Of a DNA stretch of 64,000 nt, positions 5,817 to 21,860 are shown piece after piece. The number at the start of each line of letters is the position of its first letter. Position 1 is the stretch's first letter. The translations under genes were made by a program, and so were the position numbers. The stretch lies in the IMG/VR virus record IMGVR_UViG_3300037067_012588. One strand, given 5' to 3'. Source of the DNA: a virus (lineage: Duplodnaviria > Caudoviricetes). The notes under the pieces are model-generated. The model was not told the DNA's origin, did not search any database, and saw only the letters and a list, made by a program, of their open reading frames with translations.

Positions 5817-6371
5817 CTAGGCGAAAAAATGGTTGCTAATCTTTTTATCTTGAGAAACAACATGTTCGATGATGAACTTACAATCATGAGGAGGCGGGTC
5901 GAATATGTCGATTTTTGTATACCAGTTTCTGGTATCTTCTCCAAGCAAACAGCAATCGACCTTTCCAATCTCCCAGTCCGACTCGAACTCTTCCTTGTCC
6001 GATTCAATTGTTATATAATCGTTTTTGTGATGGACGTTGTTTTTGATTACGAGAAACCGCCACTTGCAATTCAGACAAACATCGTGACTCAGCTTAGGGG
6101 TCTCAAGATCAATCCGAATCTTTGTCAATCGTTTTGCCAACGCCAGACCAGCCTCCGACTTGTTAACCTGAACAAGCGCACACTGAAGAATCTTCAGCTC
6201 TTGTCGGCTCTTGATTTTGAAATCAACATCGACCTCGCCTTCTGAGTTGCGAAGCACAAAACACTTTTCAGAAGACATGCGTCTGGCTATGGCGTCTGGA
6301 TTTATCTTTTCATCCCACGAACCAATACGCTTCCACTCTTCAAGCATAGCCTTGGCTTCTTCAGGTGTCAT
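5817..6371 (-). CDS. Cys-module (CxxC...PxxC.F..EH) family protein
   Basis: VCLNC...DCC...PPHDCKFIIEHV. Confidence 0.65.
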   Translation of the reverse strand: MTPEEAKAMLEEWKRIGSWDEKINPDAIARRMSSEKCFVLRNSEGEVDVDFKIKSRQELKILQCALVQVNKSEAGLALAKRLTKIRIDLETPKLSHDVCLNCKWRFLVIKNNVHHKNDYITIESDKEEFESDWEIGKVDCCLLGEDTRNWYTKIDIFDPPPHDCKFIIEHVVSQDKKISNHFFA

Positions 6372-6374
6372 CGT

Positions 6375-6620
6375 TCACTCCGGACGCATAAACGAGTCAC
6401 CAAGTCCGATACAATTGGTGGCGTTGGCAGCGTCTTCCTTTTTCATTTCTTCCGCTTCATCCGTCTTGGAAAACTCAGCAGCAAGACGAGCAATCGATTC
6501 ACCACGAGGCTCATCCATACCAAACCGCTTGGAGTATTCCATCAGAGCGTTGAAGATAATGGATTTGTCATCAGCCGTCAATCCATACACGTTATAGACG
6601 GCTGTCCTTGTAATCTTCAT
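6375..6620 (-). CDS. hypothetical protein
   Basis: start re-chosen at MKITRT to remove the overlap with 6626..7183. Confidence 0.55.
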   Translation of the reverse strand: MKITRTAVYNVYGLTADDKSIIFNALMEYSKRFGMDEPRGESIARLAAEFSKTDEAEEMKKEDAANATNCIGLGDSFMRPE

Positions 6621-6625
6621 AAGAG

Positions 6626-7183
6626 TCAATCCTTGTTGAACAGGCTTGTATCGTTGTCCTGACCCGTCTCGAAACTGCGTGCCGTCTTGGACGAGGTCAC
6701 AATGGTGATATCGATTTGCTGACGCCCGAGAATGCTGCAAATCAGGCTGGATGGGAAAACGGAAAGAAGGTTGTCGTGTTCACGCTTCAAGTCGACCAGT
6801 TCCTTCTGGCGCTGTGTCCACGAATCACGGGACGCAACGATGATGTTTTGAAGGTTCTCATACGTCTTGACATCGACATTCGGGATGGATTCCTGAACCA
6901 TCTTCATCAGACCGCCACCACCGCCATTACCCGTTCGTGCCTCAGCATGAGCTGTGTATATTTCCTTCAGCTTCGTCATCTGGGCATCCGTACATTGGGC
7001 GACTTGCTGAACCTTCTTCCACATATTGTCGAATTCGCTCGTGTTGTCCTTCTGCTTGGCGGTAATCGTGTTGCGCAGTCGGGCTTCCGTATTCATCGTG
7101 CCGACAAACATGATGCCGAGAACGATAACGAACACCACACCGACACCAAACAAACCCAGAACAATCATCAACGTCTTGCTCAT
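6626..7183 (-). CDS. LemA-like single-pass membrane protein
   Basis: N-terminal TM helix, then a helical domain ending YENLQNII..SR...FPSSLI as in LemA-like proteins. Confidence 0.6.
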   Translation of the reverse strand: MSKTLMIVLGLFGVGVVFVIVLGIMFVGTMNTEARLRNTITAKQKDNTSEFDNMWKKVQQVAQCTDAQMTKLKEIYTAHAEARTGNGGGGGLMKMVQESIPNVDVKTYENLQNIIVASRDSWTQRQKELVDLKREHDNLLSVFPSSLICSILGRQQIDITIVTSSKTARSFETGQDNDTSLFNKD

Positions 7184-7220
7184 GTAAAAATCCTCTCTTT
7201 CTGAAGTGTTACGACGAAAA

Positions 7221-7421
7221 CTACTCGATAATCAAGTCAAGGGAGACAGACCCTGTCTTATGACGTTCTGCGTGGGTACTGGAACCAGTAAACACAAACC
7301 AAGAATGAACAAGAACTCCACCGTCCGGAGATAAAATCTTTCCTGTCGCCAAACAACCTTCAATCTTCTCGACAATGGCAGTCCTACCGCACATAACCTT
7401 GTATTCTCCGACAGTAACCAT
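7221..7421 (-). CDS. hypothetical protein
   Basis: 66-aa ORF with purine-rich SD. Confidence 0.55.
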   Translation of the reverse strand: MVTVGEYKVMCGRTAIVEKIEGCLATGKILSPDGGVLVHSWFVFTGSSTHAERHKTGSVSLDLIIE

Positions 7422-7459
7422 TCCATTCCCCTTTCTTAAGCCTTCAATAGTACATCGTC

Positions 7460-7493
7460 CAAGTCTGAATTTTCTAGTAGAAAATCAGACTTG
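7460..7493. promoter_or_regulatory. near-perfect intergenic inverted repeat (operator or terminator)
   Basis: CAAGTCTGA-A-TTTTCTA-G-TAGAAAA-TCAGACTTG, one bulged base. Confidence 0.5.
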
Positions 7494-7495
7494 TT

Positions 7496-7843
7496 TTATA
7501 CATCCTCCATCACAAGCTCCAACAGATACGGGCAGTTTATCTCACGATTCGTGTACCGAGTCAAATCAACATCGGCTGGATACTCAGAGAGAAAAACCTC
7601 ACCCTTTTGACACGGCGAAAAGGAATGATGGCTTCCTGAAATAATTTCGTCTTCTCTCTTAACATAATACGCATGGTTTTCAATCCGAACATCTTTTGCC
7701 AAACACATGCGGCAAATACGGCTCTTATGCCGAACGTTGATAAAGAAGTCCCCAAAAGGAATAACAACCGCAATAGGTATTTCCTCAATAGGCTCCCTTG
7801 GTTTGCGCTTGAAAATCCCACAAAAAGATTCGAAAAGACTCAT
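7496..7843 (-). CDS. Cys-module family protein
   Basis: ICRMC...PCQKG...NCPYLLELV. Confidence 0.65.
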   Translation of the reverse strand: MSLFESFCGIFKRKPREPIEEIPIAVVIPFGDFFINVRHKSRICRMCLAKDVRIENHAYYVKREDEIISGSHHSFSPCQKGEVFLSEYPADVDLTRYTNREINCPYLLELVMEDV

Positions 7844-8100
7844 ATCTCAAGTCCTCTTTTCAAAGCAGTATAACACATCGCCCAATATTCTTCGCAAACG
7901 AGATTCTCCCAGCTTTCCGAATCAGAACACACCACTTTCTTCAGGGCATTGCGACGAATCATGGCGATAGCAGCAATAAGGTGATGGTCATCCATGTCAC
8001 CGACAAGAATAACATCACCGTTTCTCATTTTCCACTCAACAAGCTCAAACCATTCCATTCTTTGCTCCCTTCGGATATTATACCATCGTCCGACAAGCAA
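7840..8100 (-). CDS. hypothetical protein
   Basis: W.MRNG...VGDMDDHHL..AI motif; start may be MEWFEL. Confidence 0.55.
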   Translation of the reverse strand: MLVGRWYNIRREQRMEWFELVEWKMRNGDVILVGDMDDHHLIAAIAMIRRNALKKVVCSDSESWENLVCEEYWAMCYTALKRGLEI

Positions 8101-8106
8101 AAAATT

Positions 8107-8391
8107 TTACTTTTTGAGCATTTTCTCAAGCGTCTCGGCCGACATTGGCCCGACATAGCCTTCAGTAGCCTCCACATACGGACAATCAGACGGCAATGCC
8201 CGTTGACGAATAGCATCTTCTGTCGACAAGCATCCTACGCCCTTTTCAAATCGCCTTGAGTATGCCTTACAGAGATTCGTACTTACGTCCAAAAACTGAC
8301 ACGGACGCCTTGTGAAGGCTGGTCCTATATCCGTAAGCACTTTGTAATAACAACAACGACCACAACGGCGGCAAACATCTTCATTGTCCAT
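8107..8391 (-). CDS. YkgJ/YcgN-like CxxCxxCC cysteine-cluster protein
   Basis: CRRCGRCC...CQFLD...LCKAYSRR...C...LPSDCPY. Confidence 0.8.
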   Translation of the reverse strand: MDNEDVCRRCGRCCYYKVLTDIGPAFTRRPCQFLDVSTNLCKAYSRRFEKGVGCLSTEDAIRQRALPSDCPYVEATEGYVGPMSAETLEKMLKK

Positions 8392-8402
8392 TCATTTACC
8401 CT

Positions 8403-9020
8403 TCAATAGAACGTAATATTTTCGCCATCTTTCGATGCGATTTTTCTCATCTTTGGAGAATCAACGATGCTACTCGGATAAATATTGATTGGCTCCACGC
8501 CCCAAAATGACCCAGAACGACTCGTCATCGTGTTTGCATATTCACATCCAGCAGCATACAGCTCTGAACAAACCCACTCAGAAGGTGATCCGTCCTTTGT
8601 TGGAACGGTTATTGAGAGTCCAAATTTCTTATTCAACCACTGTAGCGCAATCCGATACGCAATCGGAATGTATTCCAGATATCCATACTCTTCTTCAAGA
8701 TGTTGAACCATGAATGCTGCAATCAATTCTTGGTCCTCAACAACCCAACTATATGGTCGCATCACAACAAAATCTGCTTGAACTGAAGAAAGAGGAATCA
8801 AACGAACCTTTGAGAAAACACCAGCAAAAACTGGACCTGCTCCAACAAGAATAGATTTCCCAAACAACTCTCCTGCATAACATTCGACATGGGTATACGG
8901 CGAACCCGTAAAAAAGCGAATAGCAGCAGTTGGAAATCCTGCACTCTTCGTTACCAAGGCATCGCCTGGACGAAGGGTATCCATGAGCTTGTTAATATCA
9001 TCTGCTTTCACTTCTTTCAT
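8403..9020 (-). CDS. permuted papain-like (YaeF/YiiX, NlpC/P60) amidase
   Basis: LRPGDAL, SPYTHV (catalytic His) preceding VCSEL (catalytic Cys). Confidence 0.8.
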   Translation of the reverse strand: MKEVKADDINKLMDTLRPGDALVTKSAGFPTAAIRFFTGSPYTHVECYAGELFGKSILVGAGPVFAGVFSKVRLIPLSSVQADFVVMRPYSWVVEDQELIAAFMVQHLEEEYGYLEYIPIAYRIALQWLNKKFGLSITVPTKDGSPSEWVCSELYAAGCEYANTMTSRSGSFWGVEPINIYPSSIVDSPKMRKIASKDGENITFY

Positions 9021-9205
9021 TCGTCATCTTCCTCATCGTCATCAATCTCAAATGCTGGACTATCAACCAGCGCCTCAAGTTCATCTGCAGATTCTCGCAA
9101 CTCAAAAATCACCTCTTCAACCTCATCCGCCGAGACAGGACCATACTGTGGAAAGCTCTCCAGAATATTCATGATTCTTCTACGAAGCGTTTGGTATGTC
9201 ATCAC
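9017..9205 (-). CDS. small acidic hypothetical protein
   Basis: 62 aa, D/E-rich tail, ATGA coupling. Confidence 0.55.
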   Translation of the reverse strand: MMTYQTLRRRIMNILESFPQYGPVSADEVEEVIFELRESADELEALVDSPAFEIDDDEEDDE

Positions 9206-9261
9206 AAATCCCCCCTAAAAGTTCTTATACCATTAGAGGATTATCAAAAAAATGTTTCTTG

Positions 9262-9801
9262 TTATAACTCCTTGTCCGACATGAACTTTCCAACTTCTGA
9301 CAAAAGAAGGCTTGCAGATTCGTTGTCCTTGTTGAGAAGAGGAACAGACCTCTGCAAGAGAATACATGAACGCCGAAGAAGACTTGACAGAATGGTTATT
9401 CTTTTTTGAAGATTCTTGACAGCATTTTCAGCCTCTATGCTGACTTGCCGAATCTGTTGGGACTCTAACTGAAGAATCTCCAGTTGCTGAAAAGCTTTTT
9501 GAATGCTTGGAAATAAAGAAGCAAAAGGACTCTCGATTTCTTCTACAGCTTTTGGCATTGAACACTTACATGTCTTCCAAACAGGAGAAACTATTTCATC
9601 CTTTGCCATTCCTTCTGGATATGCAATAATCTTTCCACGACCACCACATATCTGACAATCACTGGCTCGAAACTGTCGCCCAATAATGACCTCACCAACA
9701 ATCTGGTCAACTTCATCATTCGACAAACTACTATTCGTTTTCCAAATCAGGTCCGCAAGAACTTTCGCTTGTTCTTTCATCACCATCTCTATCTTTCCCA
9801 T
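9262..9801 (-). CDS. hypothetical protein with CxxCxGxG zinc finger and coiled coil
   Basis: CQICGGRG...CKC; start re-chosen at MGKIEM after AGGAGG. Confidence 0.6.
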   Translation of the reverse strand: MGKIEMVMKEQAKVLADLIWKTNSSLSNDEVDQIVGEVIIGRQFRASDCQICGGRGKIIAYPEGMAKDEIVSPVWKTCKCSMPKAVEEIESPFASLFPSIQKAFQQLEILQLESQQIRQVSIEAENAVKNLQKRITILSSLLRRSCILLQRSVPLLNKDNESASLLLSEVGKFMSDKEL

Positions 9802-10168
9802 CTTGAACAACCTCCTGCATAAGATATCGCTTTTTGTTTGTCTGGCGTTCAGCAATGCGTTCTGCACATCGAACAATTTGAATCAGAACTTGCGAATATG
9901 GAATATGAAATCTTAATGAAATTTTTCGTGCAACAGAGACAACATCCATTCCGTCTCTCAACATCTCTCTGGCAATTTTTATCGGCAAAAAACATTGGCT
10001 ATCAAAACCAACCTCATTCCAATCGTCTGGCGGAATAGCTTTCGCCTTAGAATGCGCACGCAATTGAGACTCATCAGATATCCCACGCCCACCCTCACCC
10101 AAAGCCTTCTTTCTTCCACGAGGACATCTAGTTTGTGTTCTTGGAAGCTTTTTATACGTCCGTCCCAT
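9731..10168 (-). CDS. basic hypothetical protein
   Basis: AGGAGA SD, MGRTYKK start. Confidence 0.6.
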   Translation of the reverse strand: MGRTYKKLPRTQTRCPRGRKKALGEGGRGISDESQLRAHSKAKAIPPDDWNEVGFDSQCFLPIKIAREMLRDGMDVVSVARKISLRFHIPYSQVLIQIVRCAERIAERQTNKKRYLMQEVVQDGKDRDGDERTSESSCGPDLENE

Positions 10169-10209
10169 TTTTATCTCCTATACATAATCCGTATTATCTA
10201 AAAAAACAT

Positions 10210-10232
10210 AACACCGTGAAAATCACGGTGTT
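10210..10232 (-). terminator. rho-independent terminator-like hairpin
   Basis: aacaccgtga-aaa-tcacggtgtt followed by a T-rich tract on minus. Confidence 0.6.
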
Positions 10233-10262
10233 TCTTTATATTTCAATCTTGGTAATATTGCT

Positions 10263-10526
10263 TTACGTCTTTTGAGTTTTATGTTCTTCTTTGTGTTCAC
10301 AATGCTCAGGAGGACCATCTTTGAATCGAAAAGCCCTTGAACGACTTTCAGCAAATGGGCAATAAACTATTTTGTCTTCCCAAAAAGATGCATCAAAGAC
10401 AGTATGGTTCCATCGCCATTCTGGACGATTATTCACTACAGCCCAAGCATCGATACATTTCTGACAGACAATCAACTTCATCTTCTTCACCGGGAAATCC
10501 CAGACGGAGAATGTGTTGCAATCCAT
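10263..10526 (-). CDS. Cys-module family protein
   Basis: VCQKC...W...W..KIVYCP...PPEHCEHKEEH. Confidence 0.6.
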   Translation of the reverse strand: MDCNTFSVWDFPVKKMKLIVCQKCIDAWAVVNNRPEWRWNHTVFDASFWEDKIVYCPFAESRSRAFRFKDGPPEHCEHKEEHKTQKT

Positions 10527-10798
10527 TCCGCCTCATTCACAGCAAGAAGAAACTTCTGAGCAGTGACCCTTACAACATCTGGACATTGTTCATATTGAAT
10601 CTGAGTTCCATATTCACAAACAACATCAACGCCATCCTCTCGGATGCTTTCTGGCTCATATTCGAACTGTCCTTCATCAGAATCTTCACCATTTGTTGAA
10701 AACCCACTGTTGTTTGGAAATACCAAAACAAAATGCGAGTTTGCTTGTGTTGCTATGCCCTTGTCCCAACAACGTATATTTGAGATTGCGAAAGCCAT
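10487..10798 (-). CDS. hypothetical protein
   Basis: GGAGG SD, 103 aa. Confidence 0.6.
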   Translation of the reverse strand: MAFAISNIRCWDKGIATQANSHFVLVFPNNSGFSTNGEDSDEGQFEYEPESIREDGVDVVCEYGTQIQYEQCPDVVRVTAQKFLLAVNEAEWIATHSPSGISR

Positions 10799-10906
10799 GA
10801 TTGAATCCTCCCGAAAAGAAGATACCTACCTCATGGCTAATTATCAGTTTTTTGTGACTATGCCCAAAGATTTATTCTTGTACTTCTAAGGAAAGACGGT
10901 TGTTTG

Positions 10907-11335
10907 TCAAATGTTTTTTTGTAAAACCTGCTCCACAACAAAGGGACAATCATTGGGAACCTTACCGCCAGACAAATAAAACAGAAGACCACCACTTGTC
11001 TGTCCACTCATGATACCATCTCCAAGAATAACACGATTGGCTTCACAACGCTTTTTGCATAAACGACATATAGCTTCGGAAGCATGAATCAGAGAATCTT
11101 GGCGAGGACTCATTTTCATCTCTACGACAAATTGACAAATCTCTGCCCATATGGAAAGTTTGGTGATTGGAATCTTTTCTGAATTATTCTCCCATCTCGA
11201 TATTGTGCTTGCAGATACAAGCATCCGCTCAGCTAAAGACTTTTGAGAGAATCCAGCATTTTTTCGTCCATGTTTCAGTTTGAAAGATAGGTCTTTGAAA
11301 AAATCATTTTCCATACCATCATCCCAAAGTGACAA
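10907..11335 (-). CDS. XRE-family HTH protein fused to the Cys-module
   Basis: LKHGRKNAGFSQKSLAERMLVSASTISRWE HTH; ICRLC...VPNDCPFVVEQ. Confidence 0.8.
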   Translation of the reverse strand: MSLWDDGMENDFFKDLSFKLKHGRKNAGFSQKSLAERMLVSASTISRWENNSEKIPITKLSIWAEICQFVVEMKMSPRQDSLIHASEAICRLCKKRCEANRVILGDGIMSGQTSGGLLFYLSGGKVPNDCPFVVEQVLQKNI

Positions 11336-11807
11336 GAATAACCGAATCAGGGAAATCAGCTTCTTCTGTCATTTCTATACACTCTCGAACTGGTAATCCA
11401 CCACAACCAGCTCCAAATAACGGAAGCTTGACGACATCATCTGTATGCGAACCAACCCAATTCTTCAGTTGAACAAACGAATTACGAATCGTTGCCCGAT
11501 CTGATTTACCCTTCCATGATGCCCAGGGTTGACTCCTTACCAAAGCCTTCGATGGTGCGCAGATAATTTTGTTGTCACTGTCGACGTAAATTTCATCCTC
11601 ATATGTCTGACACCATCGACCATAATCCAACGGAAGCGACCGATACCGTGCTGATGCTAACTTTGCAAGTCCAGCACCCATTACGTTCCGACCATCTTCA
11701 CGCCATCCAACATTTGTTGGAATTACAATCCATCCATCTTTTGGCTCAACAACAAAAATATCACCAATCGCTCGTAACATATCAATCTCCATGTCTTTAC
11801 CACCCAT
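11319..11807 (-). CDS. macrodomain (ADP-ribose-processing) protein
   Basis: GDIF, VIPTN, VMGAGLAK, LPLFGAGCGGL motifs. Confidence 0.8.
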   Translation of the reverse strand: MGGKDMEIDMLRAIGDIFVVEPKDGWIVIPTNVGWREDGRNVMGAGLAKLASARYRSLPLDYGRWCQTYEDEIYVDSDNKIICAPSKALVRSQPWASWKGKSDRATIRNSFVQLKNWVGSHTDDVVKLPLFGAGCGGLPVRECIEMTEEADFPDSVILVTLG

Positions 11808-11827
11808 GAAGATTATACGTTTGGCGA

Positions 11828-12823
11828 CTAAATAAACGACTGGAAATTCTCCAATACTTCCTTAATAACATCACCATGACACATCTTTGGCGCACACCAA
11901 CACTGTAAACGAAGCTCGCCTGTTGCTTCGGCAATTCCCTTAAGTCTTTCCAACTCAACCAACACAGGCTCGTCCTTTTCCTTTATCTTCTCAATGAGCC
12001 ATGCTCGATACTTCGCAATCACAGCAGGACGATCCGATTCACACTCCAATTGAAATGGACTCCCAAGAGGAGATGGGCGTCCTATGTATTCCCCCTTGCC
12101 GCCAAGCTTTTTGTTTACAACCTTGACCTCAAACAAGGGCAAAGGTTCTAACCCAACAAGATATCGATAGGGCATACCAGCCTTACCAAAAACAATTCTG
12201 AATAATCCTTCACGTCCTTCTCGTAAGACCTTTGATATCCACCGTTGGTCTCGCAAATATACGCCTTGCTTGCTCAATAACTGTGCTCCAAACTCAGACT
12301 TTCTTTTGTAGAAATTCAACCAAAGTGTTTTTACTTTCTCATCTGCAAAACAACGATTCTTCGATTCGTTTCTGCTAATCTTCAAATCAGAATATAAATC
12401 CCAGTTGAACGAGCGAAGAAACTCATCAACAAGATCAAAAAAATGGATCTTGTGCCCAAAAAAACAATTTTCAATCGTAATCGGTTCGCCTGTTTCACGA
12501 CAACGAATAGCGTGAACCTCTCCAAGATCATCATCACAAAACGAATGCTGAATGAAGAATGTTCTACGAAATTCTATAGCTTCCCATGCAGCCACACGAA
12601 TGTTGTTGATATGTTGAACCCATCTCTTTGCCTCTAATTTTTCGACTGGCATTTTCTTGTGTTTATCTGCGTGCAAGCAATCTTGTGGAATCGCTTTTGT
12701 GGAAATCTTTCTTCGAATGTTTGGACAATTCAATTCTCCCATTGTCCACATTGTCTCTCGTGAACAGGACCATGTCGATGCAAAATCACCGACACATTCT
12801 CGGCAAACATCCTTAGATAGCAC
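11828..12823 (-). CDS. DUF4326-domain protein with N-terminal Cys-module
   Basis: C-terminal YIGRPSPLGSPF...LQCWCAPKMCHGDVI; N-terminal VCREC...NCP...IPQDCLH. Confidence 0.75.
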   Translation of the reverse strand: MLSKDVCRECVGDFASTWSCSRETMWTMGELNCPNIRRKISTKAIPQDCLHADKHKKMPVEKLEAKRWVQHINNIRVAAWEAIEFRRTFFIQHSFCDDDLGEVHAIRCRETGEPITIENCFFGHKIHFFDLVDEFLRSFNWDLYSDLKISRNESKNRCFADEKVKTLWLNFYKRKSEFGAQLLSKQGVYLRDQRWISKVLREGREGLFRIVFGKAGMPYRYLVGLEPLPLFEVKVVNKKLGGKGEYIGRPSPLGSPFQLECESDRPAVIAKYRAWLIEKIKEKDEPVLVELERLKGIAEATGELRLQCWCAPKMCHGDVIKEVLENFQSFI

Positions 12824-12835
12824 AAGAACCCTCCA

Positions 12836-13156
12836 TTACTCTTCTAGAAGAACAATATGCTCGACTGAATATGGACACCAAGATGGTATGTTTTTCGTAA
12901 TCTTTTCCATCTGATCAATACTTGCTTGTCCATTTCCTGTTGACAGTGAACAACGCTTGGCAATAAGACAACGTTTACAAGCAACATCCATAGGGTCATG
13001 TGCGCCAAAACAAACACCAGCAGGTTCGGCATCTCTCAGTTTTTCTGGACAAATCTTTGTGATGTCGCCTTTATTCCAAAGCTTATCAAGCGCCGACGTC
13101 CAACGCTCAACGCAATGCTGACAAATTATCTTCTGAAGACCATCACAAGCCACCAT
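12836..13156 (-). CDS. Cys-module family protein
   Basis: ICQHC...W..G...ICP...IPSWCPYSVEH. Confidence 0.7.
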   Translation of the reverse strand: MVACDGLQKIICQHCVERWTSALDKLWNKGDITKICPEKLRDAEPAGVCFGAHDPMDVACKRCLIAKRCSLSTGNGQASIDQMEKITKNIPSWCPYSVEHIVLLEE

Positions 13157-14334: not shown

Positions 14335-14355
14335 GATTTTCCTCCCACGACGAAT

Positions 14356-15223: not shown

Positions 15224-15236
15224 ACGAGCTACCTCC

Positions 15237-16127
15237 TCAATGGATTCCGTTACGAGACAAAACATCCCTGATTTCCATCAGTGTCTTCCTGTCCACATCG
15301 ACAGACGAAACCATGCTGCTCAGCGAGCCATAATGCTGCTCAAGAACATTCAACAGCAGACCTTTGATTTTCTCCTCATCAGGTCCATACGGCAACTTGC
15401 TTTCGTTGTACAGAACATCAAGCGACTTCTCCTTCTCCGAGAAATACTCCTTGATGCGTTCCTCCGTCCACTCGCCACGACGGATTGACTTCAAAATCTC
15501 ACTATTCCTGTCAAGCTCAAGGTCGCCCTCGGAAAGAATCTGCTCGCACTCAAGCATCAAACGAACAACGTGGTAGGCAAACTTCACGTCAAATCCGAAC
15601 TCCTGAACGTTGGCATGACGCTTGGAGCCTTCCTTCGGCTGCTTGATACTCATTTTGTGAATTTGTTGGTATGCGTACCCTCGGAATTTATGGAAACATC
15701 CCTTGTGGAGAAACAGTTTCCGATTCTCACGGAAAATCTCCGACAGACTCGTCGAATGAATAACGCAACGAGTCGGCACAAACAGAGAATCCAGCATGTT
15801 CGGGTTATTCTGCATCACAAGGTCAACAAACCGTGCGACACCGTAGACGGCGAAATCATACTGCTTGTCATGCTGCTTGTCGTCAACATGATGCTGCTGC
15901 CAGCAAGTGAAGTCTTGCGGCTCACGCCCGAACCCACGGATATGCCCAGCGAGATGCGGGAACAGATATTCCTTCGGCGGGATGCACCATCCGTACAGGT
16001 CCATATCCGAGCTTCCACCCGAACAGCCATAGGCAACACTACCCATTTGCACAAGGTAGTGCGTATTGGTCGGTAGGAACGATGGAGGGGAAATCAATCC
16101 CCGCTCTTTCAGATCAACAATCAGCAT
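15237..16127 (-). CDS. DNA pol beta superfamily nucleotidyltransferase (YcgL/RlaP-like)
   Basis: GSVAYG....SDMD, NNPNMLD.L, FRGYA..Q, FDVKFAYHVVRL, IRRG. Confidence 0.85.
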   Translation of the reverse strand: MLIVDLKERGLISPPSFLPTNTHYLVQMGSVAYGCSGGSSDMDLYGWCIPPKEYLFPHLAGHIRGFGREPQDFTCWQQHHVDDKQHDKQYDFAVYGVARFVDLVMQNNPNMLDSLFVPTRCVIHSTSLSEIFRENRKLFLHKGCFHKFRGYAYQQIHKMSIKQPKEGSKRHANVQEFGFDVKFAYHVVRLMLECEQILSEGDLELDRNSEILKSIRRGEWTEERIKEYFSEKEKSLDVLYNESKLPYGPDEEKIKGLLLNVLEQHYGSLSSMVSSVDVDRKTLMEIRDVLSRNGIH

Positions 16128-16194
16128 TTACTACTCCTTCAATAAGCCTTCGGTAGAACATCGTCTATTATGGAGATTTTTGGAATAATTTCCA

Positions 16195-16377
16195 CTATTC
16201 TTCTGAAATAGTTATCTCCACCTCGTATGGGCAGCGTGAAAGGTCGATATCCTTGAACTCCGAATACGAAGTCCCAATTGGACACATAACCTTTCCATCC
16301 TCCCACATGATGTTGTCTAGAGCATACCACTTGAACCCACGGTCAAAACAACACCTTTGGCATATTTCTTTTCGCAA
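16195..16377 (-). CDS. Cys-module family protein
   Basis: TTG start after AAGGAG; ICQRC...W..G.VMCP...CPYEVE. Confidence 0.65.
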   Translation of the reverse strand: MRKEICQRCCFDRGFKWYALDNIMWEDGKVMCPIGTSYSEFKDIDLSRCPYEVEITISEE

Positions 16378-16440
16378 ACTTATCTCCTTGGAATCACCTT
16401 GAAACTTATACAGCTCAAGTGAACATCCAAGGAATACAAA

Positions 16441-16740
16441 TTACGCCTTTAGTGAAATAAAGTGTTCAATCGAAAAAGGACAGTGTTCTGGTGGTTGTTT
16501 ATATGTCAACGCCAACATCGTCAGAGCATCTGACTCGCTCTGAGGAAGGCACCAAACACTGCCGTGCCTCCACTGATAGTCTTCTTCGATACCCCACTTC
16601 GGACGGCAGTAGTAAGCCCGCCATTTTTCATGACACCTTTTACAAATGAGCTTGACGAGAATCGGCTTACGCTTCTCGGTTGCGAACATACCCTTCTTAC
16701 GAAGTCCCTTGATTTTCCTTTTCTTCATTGTTTGTTTCAT
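16441..16740 (-). CDS. Cys-module family protein
   Basis: ICKRC...W..GSVWC...PPEHCPFSIEH. Confidence 0.7.
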   Translation of the reverse strand: MKQTMKKRKIKGLRKKGMFATEKRKPILVKLICKRCHEKWRAYYCRPKWGIEEDYQWRHGSVWCLPQSESDALTMLALTYKQPPEHCPFSIEHFISLKA

Positions 16741-16780
16741 ATACCAGTGGACTTTCGTCCACAGAAACCTTTACAAAAAG

Positions 16781-17002
16781 TCACTTGATGTTCTCCTGAT
16801 TGACCTCAGAACTCTCCGATAAAACATGCTCAACCAAGAAAGGGCAATCACTCGGAACTGTATCAGCGATGTCGGGAAACTCACTCTCCATCAACATAGA
16901 GGTGCATATCAGCCGTTCGTTTCCACAAGCTATAGATTCGGTCGCCAGAAAACAACAATCAGCATCCTCACAAATCCATCGGCTTATCTTTATCGCACTC
17001 AT
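16781..17002 (-). CDS. Cys-module family protein
   Basis: ICEDADC...IC...VPSDCPFLVEH. Confidence 0.7.
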   Translation of the reverse strand: MSAIKISRWICEDADCCFLATESIACGNERLICTSMLMESEFPDIADTVPSDCPFLVEHVLSESSEVNQENIK

Positions 17003-17189
17003 TCTCGCCCCCCGAGATAATGTGCTCCATCAGAAACGGACAACCTTGTGGAACACCGCCATCGTATTCCCCAAGAAATCTTAAATCTTCCACAAGAGTG
17101 CAAATGGTCGGACTACAAAACTCATTCGCCTCAAAGAGGCTATGGCATTTTCCTCTCTTGCAAATACCATAGTTGATTTCAGAAGTCAA
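16968..17189 (-). CDS. Cys-module family protein
   Basis: ICKRGKC...IC...VPQGCPFLMEH. Confidence 0.7.
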   Translation of the reverse strand: MTSEINYGICKRGKCHSLFEANEFCSPTICTLVEDLRFLGEYDGGVPQGCPFLMEHIISGGENECDKDKPMDL

Positions 17190-17958
17190 AACTTTGCCCT
17201 GCCTCTACAAATCCACAAAAACCATTGTCCTTGGCTGCCTGACGTACTGTCCCTGGCTGATAGTGATACAACCACATCTTCGAGCGGATATCATCACTGA
17301 GGGTTGTAAGGTCTGCAAAATTGGCATGAACACCACTCTTGAAAGGCGATGTTTCGCAGTCTTGGAAAATCACGTCACAGCTTCGATAAAAATCCATGAT
17401 TTGATTCGGAGCAAACTGCGTATCGCTCGTGAAAAACACTTTCGGCTTTTCAGATGAAACACCAATCTCCTGAATAATCAATCCATAGCTATACTTGATG
17501 TGATAGCCAGCCATAACGTGAACCGTCTGAACAGGAATAAACGTAATTCCCTCCCACACGAAGAACGAACTGTTCTCGACAGGGTGACAATCAAAATACT
17601 CAGTTAACGTCACAACCTTCCCCTGAATTGATTCCAGTCCTCCACGGAGAGCCTGCTCCCAAAGCTCGTGCATGAGTTGGGTATTGCAAAACAACCTCGG
17701 GCGTTCAGCGTTCGGATTGAAGTAAGTGCAAAACGCAAGCTCCTCAAGACCACCAACATGGTCAGCATGGAGGTGCGAGACATACACGGCATCAATGTCA
17801 GTGTATTTCAGCCCAAGACCAAGCTTGTCCGCTGTAGTCCAGCAAGTGCTTCCACAGTCAATCAATAACTTCTTGCCAGATGCCGCCGTGATAACAGCAT
17901 TGCTTTGACCATCAAGCTTGTTGAATGCCGACCCAGCTCCGATAAATTGAATCTTCAC
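17179..17958 (-). CDS. MBL-fold metallo-hydrolase, Apyc1 (anti-Pycsar)-like
   Basis: GAGSAF, LLIDCG, HLHADHVGGLEELAF, FTSDT, QDC, VHA, LYHY. Confidence 0.8.
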   Translation of the reverse strand: MKIQFIGAGSAFNKLDGQSNAVITAASGKKLLIDCGSTCWTTADKLGLGLKYTDIDAVYVSHLHADHVGGLEELAFCTYFNPNAERPRLFCNTQLMHELWEQALRGGLESIQGKVVTLTEYFDCHPVENSSFFVWEGITFIPVQTVHVMAGYHIKYSYGLIIQEIGVSSEKPKVFFTSDTQFAPNQIMDFYRSCDVIFQDCETSPFKSGVHANFADLTTLSDDIRSKMWLYHYQPGTVRQAAKDNGFCGFVEAGQSFDF

Positions 17959-18236
17959 TTGTTTTCTCCCGGCTTGACATTGGAAAGAATCTTCGAAATC
18001 TCTTCGTATGTCCGACAGGTGATGATGATAGCGTGCTCACGAGAAAAACCACGAGCCTCAAGGGAAAGAATAGCATCCGCACGCATGTTGACGCTCGAAA
18101 CGAAAATAGCATTAAGCATCTCTTTCAGGTCGGGTCCAAACTCTTTGGCGACAGTCTTGATTCCGTCAACAACAGGACGGAACTCGGAAGCCATACTCAT
18201 TATTTCAGCAATAGCCTTCAGTGAAGAAGTATCCAT
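17955..18236 (-). CDS. hypothetical protein
   Basis: 93 aa, GFSREHA motif, coupled to the downstream gene. Confidence 0.6.
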   Translation of the reverse strand: MDTSSLKAIAEIMSMASEFRPVVDGIKTVAKEFGPDLKEMLNAIFVSSVNMRADAILSLEARGFSREHAIIITCRTYEEISKILSNVKPGENK

Positions 18237-18260
18237 TCAAAACCCCTTTCTTGAAATTCT

Positions 18261-18944
18261 TTATTTCCTCAACCTCACAAACGGATGGAGCGGACGAACC
18301 GACTCCATAATCTCTTCAAGGTCTTCATCAGAATACTGAAACGTTCCAGCCTTTTCAGCGGAAAGCAAAGGAATATCAGCGATATACTGCTGCAATATCC
18401 AAGACCCATCTCCATCCAACTGTTTGGCCATCTCAACAATGTTTTCCTTCGAGATAGTTGCTGGACAAAGCGTTGTTCTGTATTCTCGCTCAATACCGCT
18501 TCGCTTGACAATATCAAACGTCCTCGGAATAGACTTAGCATCCAAGCCAAACGCACCAACTGAATCAAGTTGCGAGTGAAGCGTCTTGTAGTCTACACAG
18601 ATGCAATCGAGAAGGCTATTGTTAAGCAATGAAAGAACAACATCTGGTCTTGTCCCATTGGTAGACAGTTTGATGTGATGTCCGAAGTTTCTCAAAACCC
18701 TTATGAAATCTTCCAGCCCATCCTGAAGTGTTGCCTCGCCACCACTCAAAACAACACCATTAACTCCAGACAGTTTTCCAATCGCCGCAACAACACTCAA
18801 GGAATCCAACCGCTCCTCTTTCTCAAGTCCAGAGTTGTGGCAATATGGACACAGCAAATTACACCCGCCAAAAAACACAATGGATGAAATGTGCCCCGGC
18901 CACTCATTCAATGAGTTTGGAATGAACCCACGAATGTCAATCAT
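18261..18944 (-). CDS. nrdG: anaerobic ribonucleotide reductase activating radical-SAM protein
   Basis: SLNEWPG, FFGGCNLLCPYCHN (CxxxCxxC), LSGGEATL, STNGTRP, EYRTT. Confidence 0.9.
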   Translation of the reverse strand: MIDIRGFIPNSLNEWPGHISSIVFFGGCNLLCPYCHNSGLEKEERLDSLSVVAAIGKLSGVNGVVLSGGEATLQDGLEDFIRVLRNFGHHIKLSTNGTRPDVVLSLLNNSLLDCICVDYKTLHSQLDSVGAFGLDAKSIPRTFDIVKRSGIEREYRTTLCPATISKENIVEMAKQLDGDGSWILQQYIADIPLLSAEKAGTFQYSDEDLEEIMESVRPLHPFVRLRK

Positions 18945-19246
18945 GCCGTCTCCACATCACTTTCCCTTCCAGAGTAATCCGTAAACGCCATGAGAACCGA
19001 TTCGTCTTCATCATACACCTCAACCGAAGAATTCTCTTCGTAATAAAAACAGAATTTTGTTCCAATATCTTCGCTGTTTATCTTCTCGACAATGATGCTA
19101 TGGTTTTGACGAGAAGCATCAATCACCCGAACAAAAATAACATCTCTCTCGGAAAGATCATACTTGCTTTTACCATCACAGGCAACAGCAATAGCGATAT
19201 ACTTTCCGACCTCTTTTTCGAGATCATCTGCACTTATGTTTTTCAC
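18941..19246 (-). CDS. hypothetical protein
   Basis: GTG start after AAGGAG; coupled on both sides. Confidence 0.6.
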   Translation of the reverse strand: MKNISADDLEKEVGKYIAIAVACDGKSKYDLSERDVIFVRVIDASRQNHSIIVEKINSEDIGTKFCFYYEENSSVEVYDEDESVLMAFTDYSGRESDVETA

Positions 19247-20049
19247 TGTTCAATCTCCTTATGTTGGAGTGAAAACCCTCCATCGAAAACATCCTGAAGA
19301 TTCTTCGCTCTTCCTTCAAGCCAAGAATCCAAAACAAAACCCATCGGTCCAATTGGCCAGGCATCCCAGAACCAATTGTTTGTAGGGCGCTCTACGACCC
19401 TCGGCATACAAAATGCTTGGGATAGGGCATATGGCATCGTCGAAGTGCCAACATAAGCCCTACAGCCCCTCAAAAACACCATCAAATCAAGCATTGTTGG
19501 GAAAACACCAAAGTCCAACCTGACAACATCGAATCCTTTCAGAAACTCAGCATAGAACTCGTCAGAATACCGACGCCCAAGATGATTCGTCAGCGCACAA
19601 GCAACCTTGTCGTTTCCAATAATGGGTATATTCTCAACAGGACACTCACAGGCGTCCACCTTCACTCCAAGCATGTAAGCATATCGGTTAATCCAATGAA
19701 ATGCCTCATGAGTTTGGTTTGTCTGGCAGCCCCAAGCCTTACACAGCTCACGTTTTGCTCCCCAATACCAAGCGTTATCCAGAATCAACCAATCTGGATG
19801 CTTTGGGTCTTGACGACAAAACAGCTTCTCACCAACATTGTTGTGGAAAGCCTCGTCAAGATAGACGTTCTCAAAGCCACGAATATATGACTGCCTTTCC
19901 AGAAAAGAACGACAGAACTCTGTATACTCTGGCTTCCACAACGAACCAGGCGAACAATTGAAATAGAGATACGCATCCCCGACTTTGCGAATCGTCCATA
20001 GAGCGAGAATCAAGTCGCCAAGCTTTCCGCCGTGCATGAACTTATTCAT
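19243..20049 (-). CDS. putative glycosyltransferase (GT9-like)
   Basis: HGGKLGDLILAL N-terminal motif and a late YVGTSTMP..L..A segment resembling the GT9 G-x-D-S-G-P region. Confidence 0.5.
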   Translation of the reverse strand: MNKFMHGGKLGDLILALWTIRKVGDAYLYFNCSPGSLWKPEYTEFCRSFLERQSYIRGFENVYLDEAFHNNVGEKLFCRQDPKHPDWLILDNAWYWGAKRELCKAWGCQTNQTHEAFHWINRYAYMLGVKVDACECPVENIPIIGNDKVACALTNHLGRRYSDEFYAEFLKGFDVVRLDFGVFPTMLDLMVFLRGCRAYVGTSTMPYALSQAFCMPRVVERPTNNWFWDAWPIGPMGFVLDSWLEGRAKNLQDVFDGGFSLQHKEIEQ

Positions 20050-20276
20050 TCTGGACTCTCAGAAACAAAATGTTCAAGAACCATCGGGCACTCATCTGGA
20101 ACAGGCATTCGCTTTACTTCTTGAAATGCTCCTGAAATCTCATACTCGTTCGATGTTCCAGCCATCACCTTAAACAAAGACACTTTAATTATTGGTTTAC
20201 CCTCAATCTTGCAGATGTTCCCATTCCTTTGGAAATGATGGCAGCAAAGGCATATTGTCTTACTTACTTCAGTCAT
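20046..20276 (-). CDS. Cys-module family protein
   Basis: start MTEVSK after GGAGG; ICLCC...ICK...VPDECPMVLEH. Confidence 0.7.
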   Translation of the reverse strand: MTEVSKTICLCCHHFQRNGNICKIEGKPIIKVSLFKVMAGTSNEYEISGAFQEVKRMPVPDECPMVLEHFVSESPE

Positions 20277-20505
20277 GCTTGCCTCCAAAAGGAATAGACG
20301 GGTCTCGGATAATAGGAACCTCATAAAAAAGATGCTCAACAGCGTAAGGACAACCCTCTGGAACGATTCCCTCAGTGCTAAGATCGCTTTGTATGTGACA
20401 GCGAACAAAAGTATCATAGTAGTCAATAAATGTCGCAAGCCTTGGATTAAATCCACGGTTTTTATAACACAGACGACAAAGGTCAAGATTCAGTTTGTTT
20501 TTCAT
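20269..20505 (-). CDS. Cys-module family protein
   Basis: start MKNKLN; LCRLC...VRC...VPEGCPYAVEH. Confidence 0.7.
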   Translation of the reverse strand: MKNKLNLDLCRLCYKNRGFNPRLATFIDYYDTFVRCHIQSDLSTEGIVPEGCPYAVEHLFYEVPIIRDPSIPFGGKHD

Positions 20506-20743
20506 CTTCTGGCCCCCAAAAACTTCCATTGGCATTCTGCCCACTAAGAGCAATTGTATGTTCGACAACGAAAGGACACCACTTCGGAGGCTCTTCCCTG
20601 AAAAAACGTACAACAATGTCGCTCAAGCCTTCATTCAAACAGGTCACACTTGGAAACACTACTATATTACTGTCTGAATCGTACTCCGGGTCAGATATTT
20701 CATAAACAAACTGACACTTCCTGCAAATCTGTTGGCAAATCAT
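20483..20743 (-). CDS. Cys-module family protein
   Basis: start MICQQ; ICRKC...VTC...PPKWCPFVVEH. Confidence 0.7.
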   Translation of the reverse strand: MICQQICRKCQFVYEISDPEYDSDSNIVVFPSVTCLNEGLSDIVVRFFREEPPKWCPFVVEHTIALSGQNANGSFWGPEDEKQTES

Positions 20744-20781
20744 AGCAATATCCCAAAAAAACCACAAAGTTATCCACAAAC

Positions 20782-21069
20782 TCAAAAATCATCCCTCATA
20801 GTATCATCGTACATGAGGAGATTTTCTGGGAACTTCTTCACATCAATTTTCTCATCGCAACCAGCAATCTCCTGCTCTAGTTGAAAACCACACCATTCAG
20901 GGGCAAAATTTCGTTCTCTTGTGATAGTCACAAAGTTTGAACGCTTCAAGAACTTATGCTTCGGAATGACTCCACTTGGCGTATAATAAACTTCTTTCGC
21001 ACAAAGCCAATGGTCTTCAGAACAAGATTCAGAAAAACGAGAGCAGCCTTCACAAATGCAACGATTCAT
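20782..21069 (-). CDS. Cys-module family protein
   Basis: start MNRCI; ICEGC...WLC...APEWCGFQLEQ. Confidence 0.65.
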   Translation of the reverse strand: MNRCICEGCSRFSESCSEDHWLCAKEVYYTPSGVIPKHKFLKRSNFVTITRERNFAPEWCGFQLEQEIAGCDEKIDVKKFPENLLMYDDTMRDDF

Positions 21070-21079
21070 TTCACAATCC

Positions 21080-21253
21080 TTAATCTTCGTCCTTTTGGTC
21101 GCCAATAATATGCTCAATCGCTAAAGGGCATTCCTCTGGTGGGTGTCCTCCGTACAAAACACGACCACAAATGGTTGCATTCCATTTCTTGCAGTTTCGG
21201 CAAAACTTGGCGTGTAAAGCTAAACGTTCTGTCTCTGTCATGAATTCGTTCAC
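21080..21253 (-). CDS. Cys-module family protein (57 aa, absent from the ORF track)
   Basis: hand translation: MNEFMTETERLALHAKFCRNCKKWNATICGRVLYGGHPPEECPLAIEHIIGDQKDED*; GTG overlaps the upstream TGA. Confidence 0.75.
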   Translation of the reverse strand: MNEFMTETERLALHAKFCRNCKKWNATICGRVLYGGHPPEECPLAIEHIIGDQKDED

Positions 21254-21636
21254 TTCTGTCCCTTCGGTTTAGCCTTGTTCAGTTGCGCTGCAACCATTGA
21301 GCGCAAATACTGCTGAGCCATCTGGTTGATTGATCCATCTGGATAAATCAACCGCAAACCCTTCATCCTCGTCAAGATAGGCTTGATATCTTGTCCCTTC
21401 AATCCAGCAACGATACCAAAAGTAATCGAGTCAAACTCGACCTTGGACCACAGCCATTCCCACTTGGAAACTTCATCCTGTTGTTCAGAGCAATCCCCAA
21501 TGTTCTCCACAAACGTAATCCTGACAGACGGCCATGCCACAAGAGCCTGCCGAAGCAAGACATCCTCCATCAAAGGAACTATCGCCTCTGGATGCTCACT
21601 CTTCTTAAAATACCCAAGAGTCTCGCCAAAAGTCAT
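21250..21636 (-). CDS. hypothetical protein
   Basis: start re-chosen at MTFGET (TAATG overlap). Confidence 0.65.
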   Translation of the reverse strand: MTFGETLGYFKKSEHPEAIVPLMEDVLLRQALVAWPSVRITFVENIGDCSEQQDEVSKWEWLWSKVEFDSITFGIVAGLKGQDIKPILTRMKGLRLIYPDGSINQMAQQYLRSMVAAQLNKAKPKGQK

Positions 21637-21860
21637 TATTTTTTCCTCAAATTGTTCCAAAACCTCGTAATTTTTTGCAAAATGTTCTCTTTTACAGTGT
21701 AATGCTTCTTGATGTTTGGACAATACGATGGTGCTTCATCTGAGATAAAAATGCGCCTTGGTGAACCGTCCCCAGAACAAACAAATCGACTATCCCATGT
21801 CCAAAGAACATTGTAAACATAAACGCAATGCTTGCACTTACGACAAATCCAGATGTTCAT
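21636..21860 (-). CDS. Cys-module family protein
   Basis: ICRKC...FVC...APSYCPNIKKH. Confidence 0.6.
   Translation of the reverse strand: MNIWICRKCKHCVYVYNVLWTWDSRFVCSGDGSPRRIFISDEAPSYCPNIKKHYTVKENILQKITRFWNNLRKK

Follow-up and report, generated by a model that had tools for sequence, protein, structure and literature searches.

A family of diverged four-cysteine mini-domains in jumbo phages as a possible repertoire of host-directed binders

Strong selection for economy is generally assumed to act on phage genomes. In large eukaryotic DNA viruses such as ASFV and poxviruses, the MGF110/360 and ankyrin families, which are thought to be host-directed, consist of tens of diverged paralogues located in variable parts of the genome, with a copy number that shifts between relatives, traits that recall the phage family described here, although the domain of life of the host, the fold and the protein size (65 aa in the phage family) are different. 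The WhiB-like (Wbl) proteins, known from actinobacteria and from phages that infect them, which have a C-x(14-22)-C-x2-C-x5-C spacing, a G[VI]WGG turn and a 4Fe-4S cluster, offer an analogy only, as they too are small, helical, four-Cys, phage-encoded proteins and they bind a host protein (sigma factor); our family has neither their spacing nor the GxWGG turn and a WhiB-like identity was rejected. Rubredoxins, zinc ribbons and treble clefs are Cys4 mini-domains that share with the family four Cys ligands, a length of 50-70 residues and aromatic residues or Pro beside the ligands (W-C-P), whereas the present module has one CxxC pair and its other two putative ligands are single Cys in separate elements. 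In Bacillus phage G, a lineage-specific zinc-ribbon expansion of ~35 copies has been described and nucleic-acid binding was proposed for it (Iyer et al. 2021, PMC7824862). As in our case, that expansion concerns a jumbo phage and dozens of diverged, small, Cys-based and (here putatively) metal-binding copies of untested function, but the ribbon has two knuckles, while our family is predicted to fold as helix-helix-hairpin-helix, its putative ligands being one CxxC and a lone Cys-Pro at each of two further sites, and its copy number is higher (~90 in 49 kb). Profile A2, which represents the uncurated MLxKxIC-x2-C ... CP[YF]xLE[HQ] family (1,279 clusters at 50% identity, almost all metagenomic), found nothing up to E 1 in the 497.5-kb phage G genome (JN638751), and the same query gave 90 matches in fragment G001.

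The window analysed here is a stretch of 64,000 nucleotides from the 345-kb genome of an uncultured phage, in which an earlier note had recognised about 16 proteins with a common Cys module. An HMM built from 37 homologues outside the window and searched against the 1,195 six-frame ORFs of the window placed exactly the 16 named ORFs at ranks 1-16 (E 6.5e-18 to 0.044), with E = 1 for the best non-member (rank 17) and the lowest scores for the members at 21636 (0.044), 7496 (0.0076) and 20046 (0.0014). All 16 were confirmed at the following coordinates, all on the minus strand (E values are from this HMM unless another source is named):

5817-6371, minus strand: 184 aa; N-terminal part without recognised domain and C-terminal Cys module, CxxC at residues 99/102, closing C-K-F-I-I-E-H (E 1.8e-10; Cys map)
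7496-7843, minus strand: divergent, 115 aa; closing CPYLLEL (E 7.6e-3; four Cys align)
10263-10526, minus strand: 87 aa; canonical W...W core, closing C-E-H-K-E-E-H (E 8.4e-11)
10907-11335, minus strand: 142 aa; XRE-type HTH at residues 21-67 (Pfam HTH_3, E 1.5e-9) and C-terminal Cys module, CPFVVEQ (E 2.3e-4)
11828-12823, minus strand: 331 aa; N-terminal Cys module (E 1.6e-7) and C-terminal DUF4326 (Pfam, E 1.7e-18)
12836-13156, minus strand: 106 aa; variable loop 2 with four additional Cys (E 3.3e-13; Cys map)
16195-16377, minus strand: minimal, 60 aa; closing CPYEVEI; TTG start preceded by AAGGAG (E 1.7e-12)
16441-16740, minus strand: 99 aa; basic N-terminal extension; core used as input of the structure model (E 6.5e-18; AlphaFold pLDDT 91.9)
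16781-17002, minus strand: 73 aa; C-x4-CC replaces CxxC; closing CPFLVEH (E 5.9e-7)
16968-17189, minus strand: 73 aa; C-x4-C; closing CPFLMEH (E 1.4e-4)
20046-20276, minus strand: 76 aa; C-x-CC; closing CPMVLEH (E 1.4e-3; strict motif)
20269-20505, minus strand: 78 aa; closing CPYAVEH (E 1.5e-6); identical to database protein P0012
20483-20743, minus strand: 86 aa; closing CPFVVEH (E 1.5e-8); syntenic orthologue in the related phage G002 (36% over 89 aa, E 7e-21)
20782-21069, minus strand: ~95 aa; closing CGFQLEQ (E 2.8e-4); G002 syntenic orthologue (43% over 88 aa, E 2e-23)
21080-21253, minus strand: minimal, 57 aa; closing CPLAIEH (E 6.9e-5); G002 syntenic orthologue (47%, E 4e-17)
21636-21860, minus strand: weakest member, 74 aa; closing CPNIKKH (E 0.044, rank 16 of 1,195; four Cys align)

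The four Cys (two from CxxC, one in the middle and one from P-x2-C-P) are invariant in the aligned core modules of all 16 members, and the Cys map shows the CxxC varied to C-x4-C and to C-x4-CC in one copy each. The strict closing motif CP[FYLM]xxEH is present eight times in the window, always on the minus strand, while 100 shuffles gave a mean of 0.03. Between 5.9 and 21.1 kb, the minus strand also has 12 occurrences of the looser P-x2-C-x4-E-[HQLKI], compared with an expectation of ~1 for the whole window. No direct DNA repeats of at least 25 nt were detected within 5000-23000, and the closing motif uses all Pro codons and both codons of Cys, Phe, Glu and His. Therefore, the conservation of the family is at the protein level only, as the earlier note had argued from the differing codons of the motif. 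The same note regarded W...W-x2-G-x-V-x-C as the mark of a subgroup, but it is actually the canonical core (W 83%, W 95%, G 70% and V 75% across 194 modules) and the copies without it are the derived ones. The four-Cys family is real and large, and the 16 ORFs (of ~38 genes here) are only the window's share of a much bigger family.

Each of the four Cys is conserved in 97-100% of the 194 modules, Glu (position 60) in 100% and His/Gln (position 61) in 99%, and the other conserved polar residues are Lys4 (88%) and an acidic pair, Asp/Glu at positions 23-24. The consensus of the frame reads M-L-[NS]-K-x-[IV]-C-x2-C, W, W-x2-G-x-V-x-C-P and P-P-x2-C-P-[YF]-x-L-E-[HQ], with a Cys spacing of C-x2-C-x(20-50)-C-x(17-50)-C in the family; loop positions carry less than 0.7 bits, and insertions of up to 28-29 residues occur at exactly two places. 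AlphaFold, run with a 46-sequence alignment, gave a helix-helix-hairpin-helix fold with pLDDT 91.9 and pTM 0.78, and a second run on 21 two-module proteins without window sequences returned the same arrangement for module 2 (pLDDT ~90). The two independent runs agree on one predicted fold and, together with the sequence logo, they bear out the four-Cys scaffold, in which the frame is conserved while the two loops differ in sequence and length. Judging from the conservation of the Cys and their positions in the secondary structure of the model, one metal ion, most likely Zn(II), would be held by the four Cys and would link three parts of the domain. His as a metal ligand is argued against by its substitution with Gln in 15% of modules, and the invariant Glu and the His/Gln may equally well have a second-shell structural role or form a binding surface. 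In the 12836 member, the extra Cys of loop 2 may form a second metal site.

No relative of the family was found in Pfam, NCBIfam, PHROG, PADLOC or PDB, which agrees with the lack of a named family in the original description; in 46 members, no Pfam model reached threshold for the Cys module and none recurred in more than two. The predicted fold appears to be previously unmatched by solved structures, the best Foldseek match having E 3.6 and the best VIA match Z 3.6, and neither zinc ribbon nor treble clef is among the listed Foldseek or VIA matches, though for a 72-residue model this absence does not exclude the fold. Among the candidates tried, a YkgJ-like protein (PF03692, CxxCxxCC, a putative zinc- or iron-chelating domain) encoded at 8107-8391 resembles the family in being Cys-rich, in its L-P-x-D-C-P-Y end and in co-occurring with it in two phages, but it was rejected, as no member has a Pfam match to this domain and hhalign against two phage YkgJ-like proteins gave a probability of 8.9%, with no more than 12 columns aligned. 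A rubredoxin-like domain was rejected since the second CxxC(G) knuckle is replaced by a single Cys followed by P-[YF] and only one of 46 members gives a sub-threshold match. An HNH or beta-beta-alpha-metal nuclease was also rejected, because strand 1 ends in V-x-C-P and has no conserved His or Asn there.

Outside fragments of ~300-350 kb phages the family was not found, and its nearest ESM Atlas clusters are viral. One 48.9-kb fragment has ~90 copies, with family-matching ORFs covering ~27.7 kb of it, against 9 copies found in 253 kb of G002. The paralogues are old: identity to the nearest one is typically 35%, nearest paralogues do not sit side by side, and the 77 modules include a single recent duplicate pair (75%). 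Three window members (20483, 20782 and 21080) have syntenic orthologues in G002 with 36-47% identity over the whole length (E 4e-17 to 2e-23), whereas paralogues compared within the window never match better than E 1e-7, and the orthologues preserve copy-specific loop and tail features across phages. Individual copies are maintained as orthologues in a related phage. The 16195 gene also has a likely positional counterpart in G002, between NrdG and RlaP, which is not its best BLAST match but in pairwise alignment shares with it the rare CPYxVEI, with Ile for His. Some window copies had no orthologue in the syntenic G002 stretches that were compared.

The module behaves as a portable unit, joined at its N- or C-terminal side to other domains, including HTH_3, DUF4326, Methyltransf_24 and CoaE, and tandem proteins with 2-3 modules also occur. 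The HTH fusion of the 10907 gene is kept in two phages, with the same architecture in fragment G001 at 27% identity. Genes interleaved with the copies code for an Apyc1-like anti-Pycsar nuclease, ParB-methyltransferases, RlaP, an RNAP alpha-CTD and a DUF4326 protein. For DUF4326, a role in the processing of ADP-ribose derivatives during conflicts between virus and host has been suggested (PMC9503650). A BCS1-like AAA+ ATPase at 319-1662 adjoins the arrays.

The explanation we tentatively prefer, while granting it somewhat less than an even chance, is that the copies form a repertoire of binders directed against the host, built on a metal-stapled scaffold with two hypervariable loops. Each gene would give a self-contained domain of ~65 residues (helix, helix, beta-hairpin, helix), in which the CxxC opening helix 1, a Cys-Pro after strand 1 and a Cys-Pro ahead of the last helix would act as metal ligands and join three parts of the domain. 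With the frame held constant, the loop that follows helix 1 and the one within the hairpin, which together would be the binding surface, could vary in sequence, length and charge, and the phage would keep a large repertoire of such domains in its accessory/anti-defence region. Stand-alone members would be recognition proteins with loops of their own, most probably bound to different host macromolecules during takeover or counter-defence, and a domain fused to an enzyme or HTH would serve as a targeting or assembly module. Net charge ranges from -11 to +10 across modules and the pI values spread over acidic, neutral and basic, a diversity more in keeping with many distinct targets than with DNA or a single common ligand. 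The constant frame and common predicted fold, the retention of individual copies in G002, the fusions, the neighbouring genes and the limitation to jumbo phages also speak for this reading. To our knowledge, the sets of anti-defence or takeover proteins of phages are all far smaller than the up to ~90 deeply diverged copies of this family, a point against a repertoire.

The earlier note had read the family as an adaptor or inhibitor library with a constant docking helix that may bind one common partner. As an adaptor library with one hub, the family would have a constant face, made of the N-terminal helix and the CP[YF]xLE[HQ] helix, that docks on a shared phage or host machine, and the loops would bring clients. 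Glu60 and His/Gln61 are indeed conserved like the Cys ligands, Lys4 and the acidic residues at 23-24 are polar as well, and the module is found on unrelated enzymes in the manner of an address label. These conserved residues fit a shared site or common partner and count against the repertoire reading, which has no need of such conservation; however, they are explicable as second-shell or helix-capping residues of a metal site, and 79 other large-phage loci with the AAA+ ATPase have no family member within 10 kb of it. The four-Cys scaffold, the variable loops and the absence of a named family are kept from that interpretation, the ATPase neighbour shows no specific link to the family, and a common hub seems decidedly unlikely. 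A repertoire of sequence-specific nucleic-acid binders, either transcription factors or structural DNA/RNA-binding proteins, is unlikely too, if less so, as it has the jumbo-phage precedent (PMC7824862), a helix 1 rich in Lys/Arg after the CxxC (positions 8, 9 and 13) and fusion partners that act on DNA or nucleotides (HTH_3, CoaE-type kinase, methyltransferase). The fusions, counting the phosphatase-like DUF4326 with HTH, kinase and methyltransferase, fit a nucleic-acid- or nucleotide-binding role as well as the repertoire, and to that extent count against the latter. On the other hand, pI is below 6 in 99 of 245 modules, net charge falls as low as the -11 given above, the frame carries conserved acidic residues, the region has no repeated DNA motifs, and fusion to an HTH suggests that DNA binding is not what the module itself contributes.

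A redox reading, in which the copies are small iron-sulfur or rubredoxin-like proteins that donate electrons or sense redox state, for instance for the many radical-SAM enzymes of the phage, would fit the aromatic residues flanking the four Cys (W-C-P-Y) and the presence of NrdG-like and other radical-SAM enzymes. A single member has a sub-threshold rubredoxin-like match (E 0.0012), rubredoxin and ferredoxin models touching no other of the 46; rubredoxin's second knuckle is missing, no Fe-S protein fold matches above noise and electron transfer needs no such number of hypervariable copies, so that we regard this reading as improbable. An expansion that is mostly functionless or selfish, with duplication and drift tolerated in a very large genome, fits the copy-number differences (~90 in 48.9 kb versus 9 in 253 kb of G002) and the window copies lacking an orthologue in the compared stretches. 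Such an origin is scarcely credible, given that every copy retains an open frame, the four Cys and the conserved residues of the module in spite of only ~35% identity to the nearest paralogue, that orthologues keep copy-specific loops across phages, that recent duplicates are limited to the one pair in 77 modules and nearest paralogues are not neighbours, and that nuclease or transposase features are absent.

A large share of tens of kilobases is given to one tiny domain whose copies are kept across species, despite the economy expected of phages. If the copies are binders, as in the preferred repertoire reading, they would amount to a ready-made collection of tiny, metal-stabilised scaffolds from nature, each with two loops open to design, and would give a new route to host factors important in infection. 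If they were DNA readers or redox proteins instead, the fold would still be new and the gene family among the largest in phages, and either way the family deserves a curated model, which would give a name to thousands of 'hypothetical' metagenomic proteins. The broadest form of the idea, that a clade of ~300-350 kb phages has a germline-encoded library of 70-90 or more zinc-stapled mini-binders of unseen fold, each with its own loop pair and host target, and reuses the scaffold as an address module on enzymes, is doubtful; if true, it would give viruses their equivalent of an innate receptor or nanobody-like library, and no larger single-domain gene family would be known from a phage.

At the level of gene starts, a purine-rich Shine-Dalgarno-like stretch lies ahead of the start codon in most window copies. 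The likely true start codons of the 20046, 20269, 20483 and 20782 genes are at 20276, 20505, 20743 and 21069, respectively, and a GTG start in the 11828 gene yields M-L-S-K-D-V-C.

All 16 open reading frames (ORFs) that the earlier note had placed in one Cys-module family between 5817 and 21860 are present, and in an alignment of their cores the four Cys are invariant. Of the closing motif said to unite them, the strict form, CP[FYLM]xxEH, occurs eight times and on the minus strand only, against 0.03 in shuffled sequences, and a looser form occurs 12 times at 5.9-21.1 kb, against about one occurrence to be expected in the whole window. When the window was searched with a profile built from 37 metagenomic homologues from outside it, exactly the same 16 ORFs took the first 16 places among 1,195 six-frame ORFs, the next match having an E-value of 1. 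Conservation lies at the level of protein and not of a DNA repeat, as had been proposed, since repeats of at least 25 nt are absent and synonymous codons are used throughout the motif. Most copies are preceded by a Shine-Dalgarno-like stretch, and by our own count the family makes up about 16 of the 38 minus-strand genes at 5.8-21.9 kb.

The family reaches far beyond this phage. Searched with a profile, 1.84 billion representative proteins yielded 1,279 clusters at E <=1e-3, the best 150 all below 2.5e-7, and a word-index search gave 12 relatives. Most members are stand-alone proteins of 62-90 aa, with 2-3 tandem modules in about one fifth of the best matches. The signature from 194 full modules runs from M-L-[NS]-K-x-[IV]-C-x2-C through variable loop 1 to W-x3-[DE][ED]-x2-W-x2-G-x-V-x-C-P, and through variable loop 2 to P-P-x2-C-P-[YF]-x-L-E-[HQ]-[LIV]-[VML]. 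The W...W-x2-G-x-V-x-C pattern that had been read as the mark of a subgroup is therefore real but belongs to the canonical core. In these 194 modules each Cys is conserved at 97-100%, Glu at 100% and His at 84%, with Gln in 15%, and insertions of up to 28-29 residues fall at exactly two sites. Net charge varies between modules, from -11 to +10. In multi-module proteins every later module reopens with L-x-K-x-[IV]-C, and so the conserved N-terminus is part of the fold rather than a terminal signal. Neither Pfam, NCBIfam, PHROGs nor PADLOC had a match at threshold, which agrees with the earlier failure to recognise a named family; in the ESM Atlas the clusters closest to the family consist of viral 'hypothetical proteins', and our literature search found nothing specific on such a family. 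In the window member at 12836-13156 (minus strand), variable loop 2 contains an insert with four additional Cys (C-x10-C-x2-C-x5-C), which shows how much this loop tolerates and may represent a nested second metal site.

AlphaFold2 modelled the module with high confidence from a 46-row alignment (pLDDT 91.9, pTM 0.78). In the model, helix 3-17 bears the CxxC, helix 24-31 bears the Trp, strands 34-37 and 48-51 follow, with the third Cys closing strand 1, and helix 63-71, which bears the Glu-His, starts right after the fourth Cys-Pro; this topology would bring the four Cys together in one cluster. When 21 two-module proteins from outside the window were modelled in the same way, module 2 showed the same order of elements (pLDDT ~90). 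Both models thus converge on one fold, and the failure to converge that would have counted against the earlier note did not arise in these two; module 1 was less certain, and the pTM of 0.55 does not fix how the modules pack. Co-prediction of two module copies with Zn scored 0.00, which bears neither way on self-association. Foldseek against the PDB had a best E of 3.6, with nothing found on a second look at the matches, VIA-align against 48,161 chains a best Z of 3.6 and the BFVD predicted viral structures a best E of ~1, while the PDB sequence profile search returned only yippee-like 5 at a not meaningful E of 0.36. Among the structures searched the predicted domain thus has no match, and it is too small for this absence to prove a new fold.

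Degenerate DNA patterns modelled on the closing motif picked up IMG/VR fragments, whose whole records were then searched with the profile. Members are carried by fragments G001, G002, G003, G010, G014, G015, G021, G022 and G023, for every one of which the full genome is estimated, via CheckV completeness, at ~300-360 kb, like the 344,634-bp tailed-phage contig of which the window is part. The 48.9-kb G001 has ~90 matches on one strand (92 ORFs covering 27.7 kb stop-to-stop), and fragments of 9-11 kb have 10-11 copies. Small phages with complete genomes that the patterns hit by chance contain either no member or a single marginal match at best (E ~2e-4 or weaker). Among 185,579 species genomes the pattern gave only two real matches: a partial copy at a contig end in a Lentisphaera MAG and, as the only clear occurrence in a cellular genome, a two-module gene among ORFans in a Victivallis MAG (protein P0008; 183-kb contig L126, 9994-10464, minus strand). 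The latter could be what is left of a prophage, or else a lead to the host, and the two matches point weakly to Lentisphaerota as hosts. The Victivallis gene adjoins genes for a Sel1-repeat protein and an AAA_14/DUF4143 ATPase.

All genes across the window lie on the minus strand (G+C ~44%), and the setting of the family includes the following:

319-1662, minus strand: BCS1-like AAA+ ATPase, 447 aa
8107-8391, minus strand: YkgJ-like CxxCxxCC protein, 94 aa (weak PF03692 match)
10907-11335, minus strand: XRE-type HTH with C-terminal module
11828-12823, minus strand: N-terminal module with DUF4326
14861-15265, minus strand: stand-alone RNAP alpha-CTD (E 3e-12)
15237-16127, minus strand: RlaP-type nucleotidyltransferase (E 1e-19)
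17179-17958, minus strand: Apyc1-like metallo-beta-lactamase nuclease (anti-Pycsar Apyc1 family match, E 1.3e-33)
18261-18944, minus strand: NrdG-like radical-SAM activase
21862-27719, minus strand: three ParB-methyltransferase fusions and a ParB-like protein with a PLP-enzyme domain
27972-30182, minus strand: NrdD

Ig-like and tail-tube-like structural proteins are encoded farther along. GenBank phages contained neither DNA-level relatives of the window (megablast, 10 kb) nor a tblastn match to a typical family member.

The copies are old. In G001 the nearest paralogue has a median identity of 35.5%, one pair only reaches 75%, and nearest paralogues map no closer together than random pairs, which rejects a recent 'gene accordion'; within the window no pair is better than E 1e-7. 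Comparison with G002, which is syntenic with the window phage (identities of 84% for NrdD, 67% for ParB-methyltransferase, 70% for RlaP and 48% for NrdG), shows that copies are nevertheless individually conserved between phages. For members 21080, 20782 and 20483 (named by lower coordinate), G002 has positional orthologues with identities of 47%, 43% and 36% and with copy-specific loop and tail residues in common. Member 16195 and its likely positional counterpart, between NrdG and RlaP, both have the rare CPYxVEI, the G002 ORF not being the best BLAST match. The syntenic G002 stretches fetched offer no clear counterpart for 20269, 20046, 16968 and 16781, so turnover has occurred besides retention.

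Taking these results together, we tentatively favour a metal-stapled recognition scaffold diversified in its loops: the constant frame would build the fold round a single Cys4 site, the two loops would confer on each copy a specificity of its own, and the phage would maintain the resulting repertoire of binders in an accessory region so as to take over the host or counter its defences. On general grounds the metal is more likely Zn than Fe-S, and the substitution of Gln for His in 15% of modules speaks against a ligand role for this residue. A role in Fe-S or redox chemistry fits the data poorly and is quite improbable, and an expansion without function, which fits them no better than poorly, is highly improbable. 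A set of adaptors that dock on one common hub, as the earlier note had suggested, is unlikely in our view but draws some support from the conserved polar residues, the invariant Glu among them.

A repertoire of nucleic-acid readers, which we also consider unlikely, though slightly less so, draws on the precedent of Bacillus phage G and on the fusion partners of the module. The HTH-module architecture recurs in G001 at 27% identity, and elsewhere the module precedes a Methyltransf_24 domain (G003) or follows a CoaE-type kinase (G002). XRE proteins usually have their oligomerisation or sensing domain at the C-terminal end, and for this reason a protein- or ligand-binding module is likelier than a DNA-binding one. 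DUF4326 has been placed in the rhodanese-phosphatase superfamily, with a proposed part in processing ADP-ribose derivatives in virus-host conflicts (PMC9503650; PMC7824862). The zinc-ribbon expansion of phage G, ~35 copies described in one sentence (PMC7824862), is the closest phenomenon described. Both are lineage-specific expansions within a jumbo phage, each of a small domain that binds metal, here by prediction. However, our profile finds nothing in the phage G genome, so kinship is rejected and the families differ; the present one is higher in copy number and has another predicted fold. Expansion as a phenomenon is thus already known, whereas the present domain is undescribed.

The best solved relatives of the ATPase at 319-1662 are mitochondrial BCS1 (PDB 6sh3, E 8e-20) and Bacillus YjoB, and it has an N-terminal hydrophobic helix as in BCS1. 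Large phages have relatives of it, on 116 IMG/VR stretches, and homologues sit within the G001 and G002 arrays. As a specific partner, that is, a translocase or unfoldase of folded mini-proteins, it was dropped, because among 80 IMG/VR loci with this ATPase the family lies within 10 kb only at the G001 locus and at none of the other 79.

Several neighbouring features were also recorded. A scan of 5-23 kb for promoters and terminators gave counts equal to those of shuffled sequence; a hairpin with a perfect 10-bp stem and T-runs on both strands, resembling a bidirectional terminator, lies at 10210-10232, just downstream of member 10263. The 162-aa protein at 11319-11807 (minus strand), directly downstream of the module-DUF4326 fusion, has by eye a Macro-like I-P-T-N ... 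G-A-G-L-A and neither a Pfam nor a PDB sequence match. The YkgJ-like protein has a 40%-identical homologue in G001 (stretch L022, 1415-1762), and its kinship with the family was rejected (hhalign 8.9%). The RNAP alpha-CTD adjoins RlaP, both within the zone of family copies, and the Apyc1-like gene is flanked by family members and has a 29%-identical homologue within the G001 array. By eye, that array is interspersed with YbiA/NADAR-like, SLOG-like and Nudix-like proteins and dTDP-sugar enzymes (e.g. 10643-11089, 1722-2075, 46223-46669), a set of genes that resembles the toolkit for NAD/ADP-ribose conflicts known from descriptions of jumbo phages.
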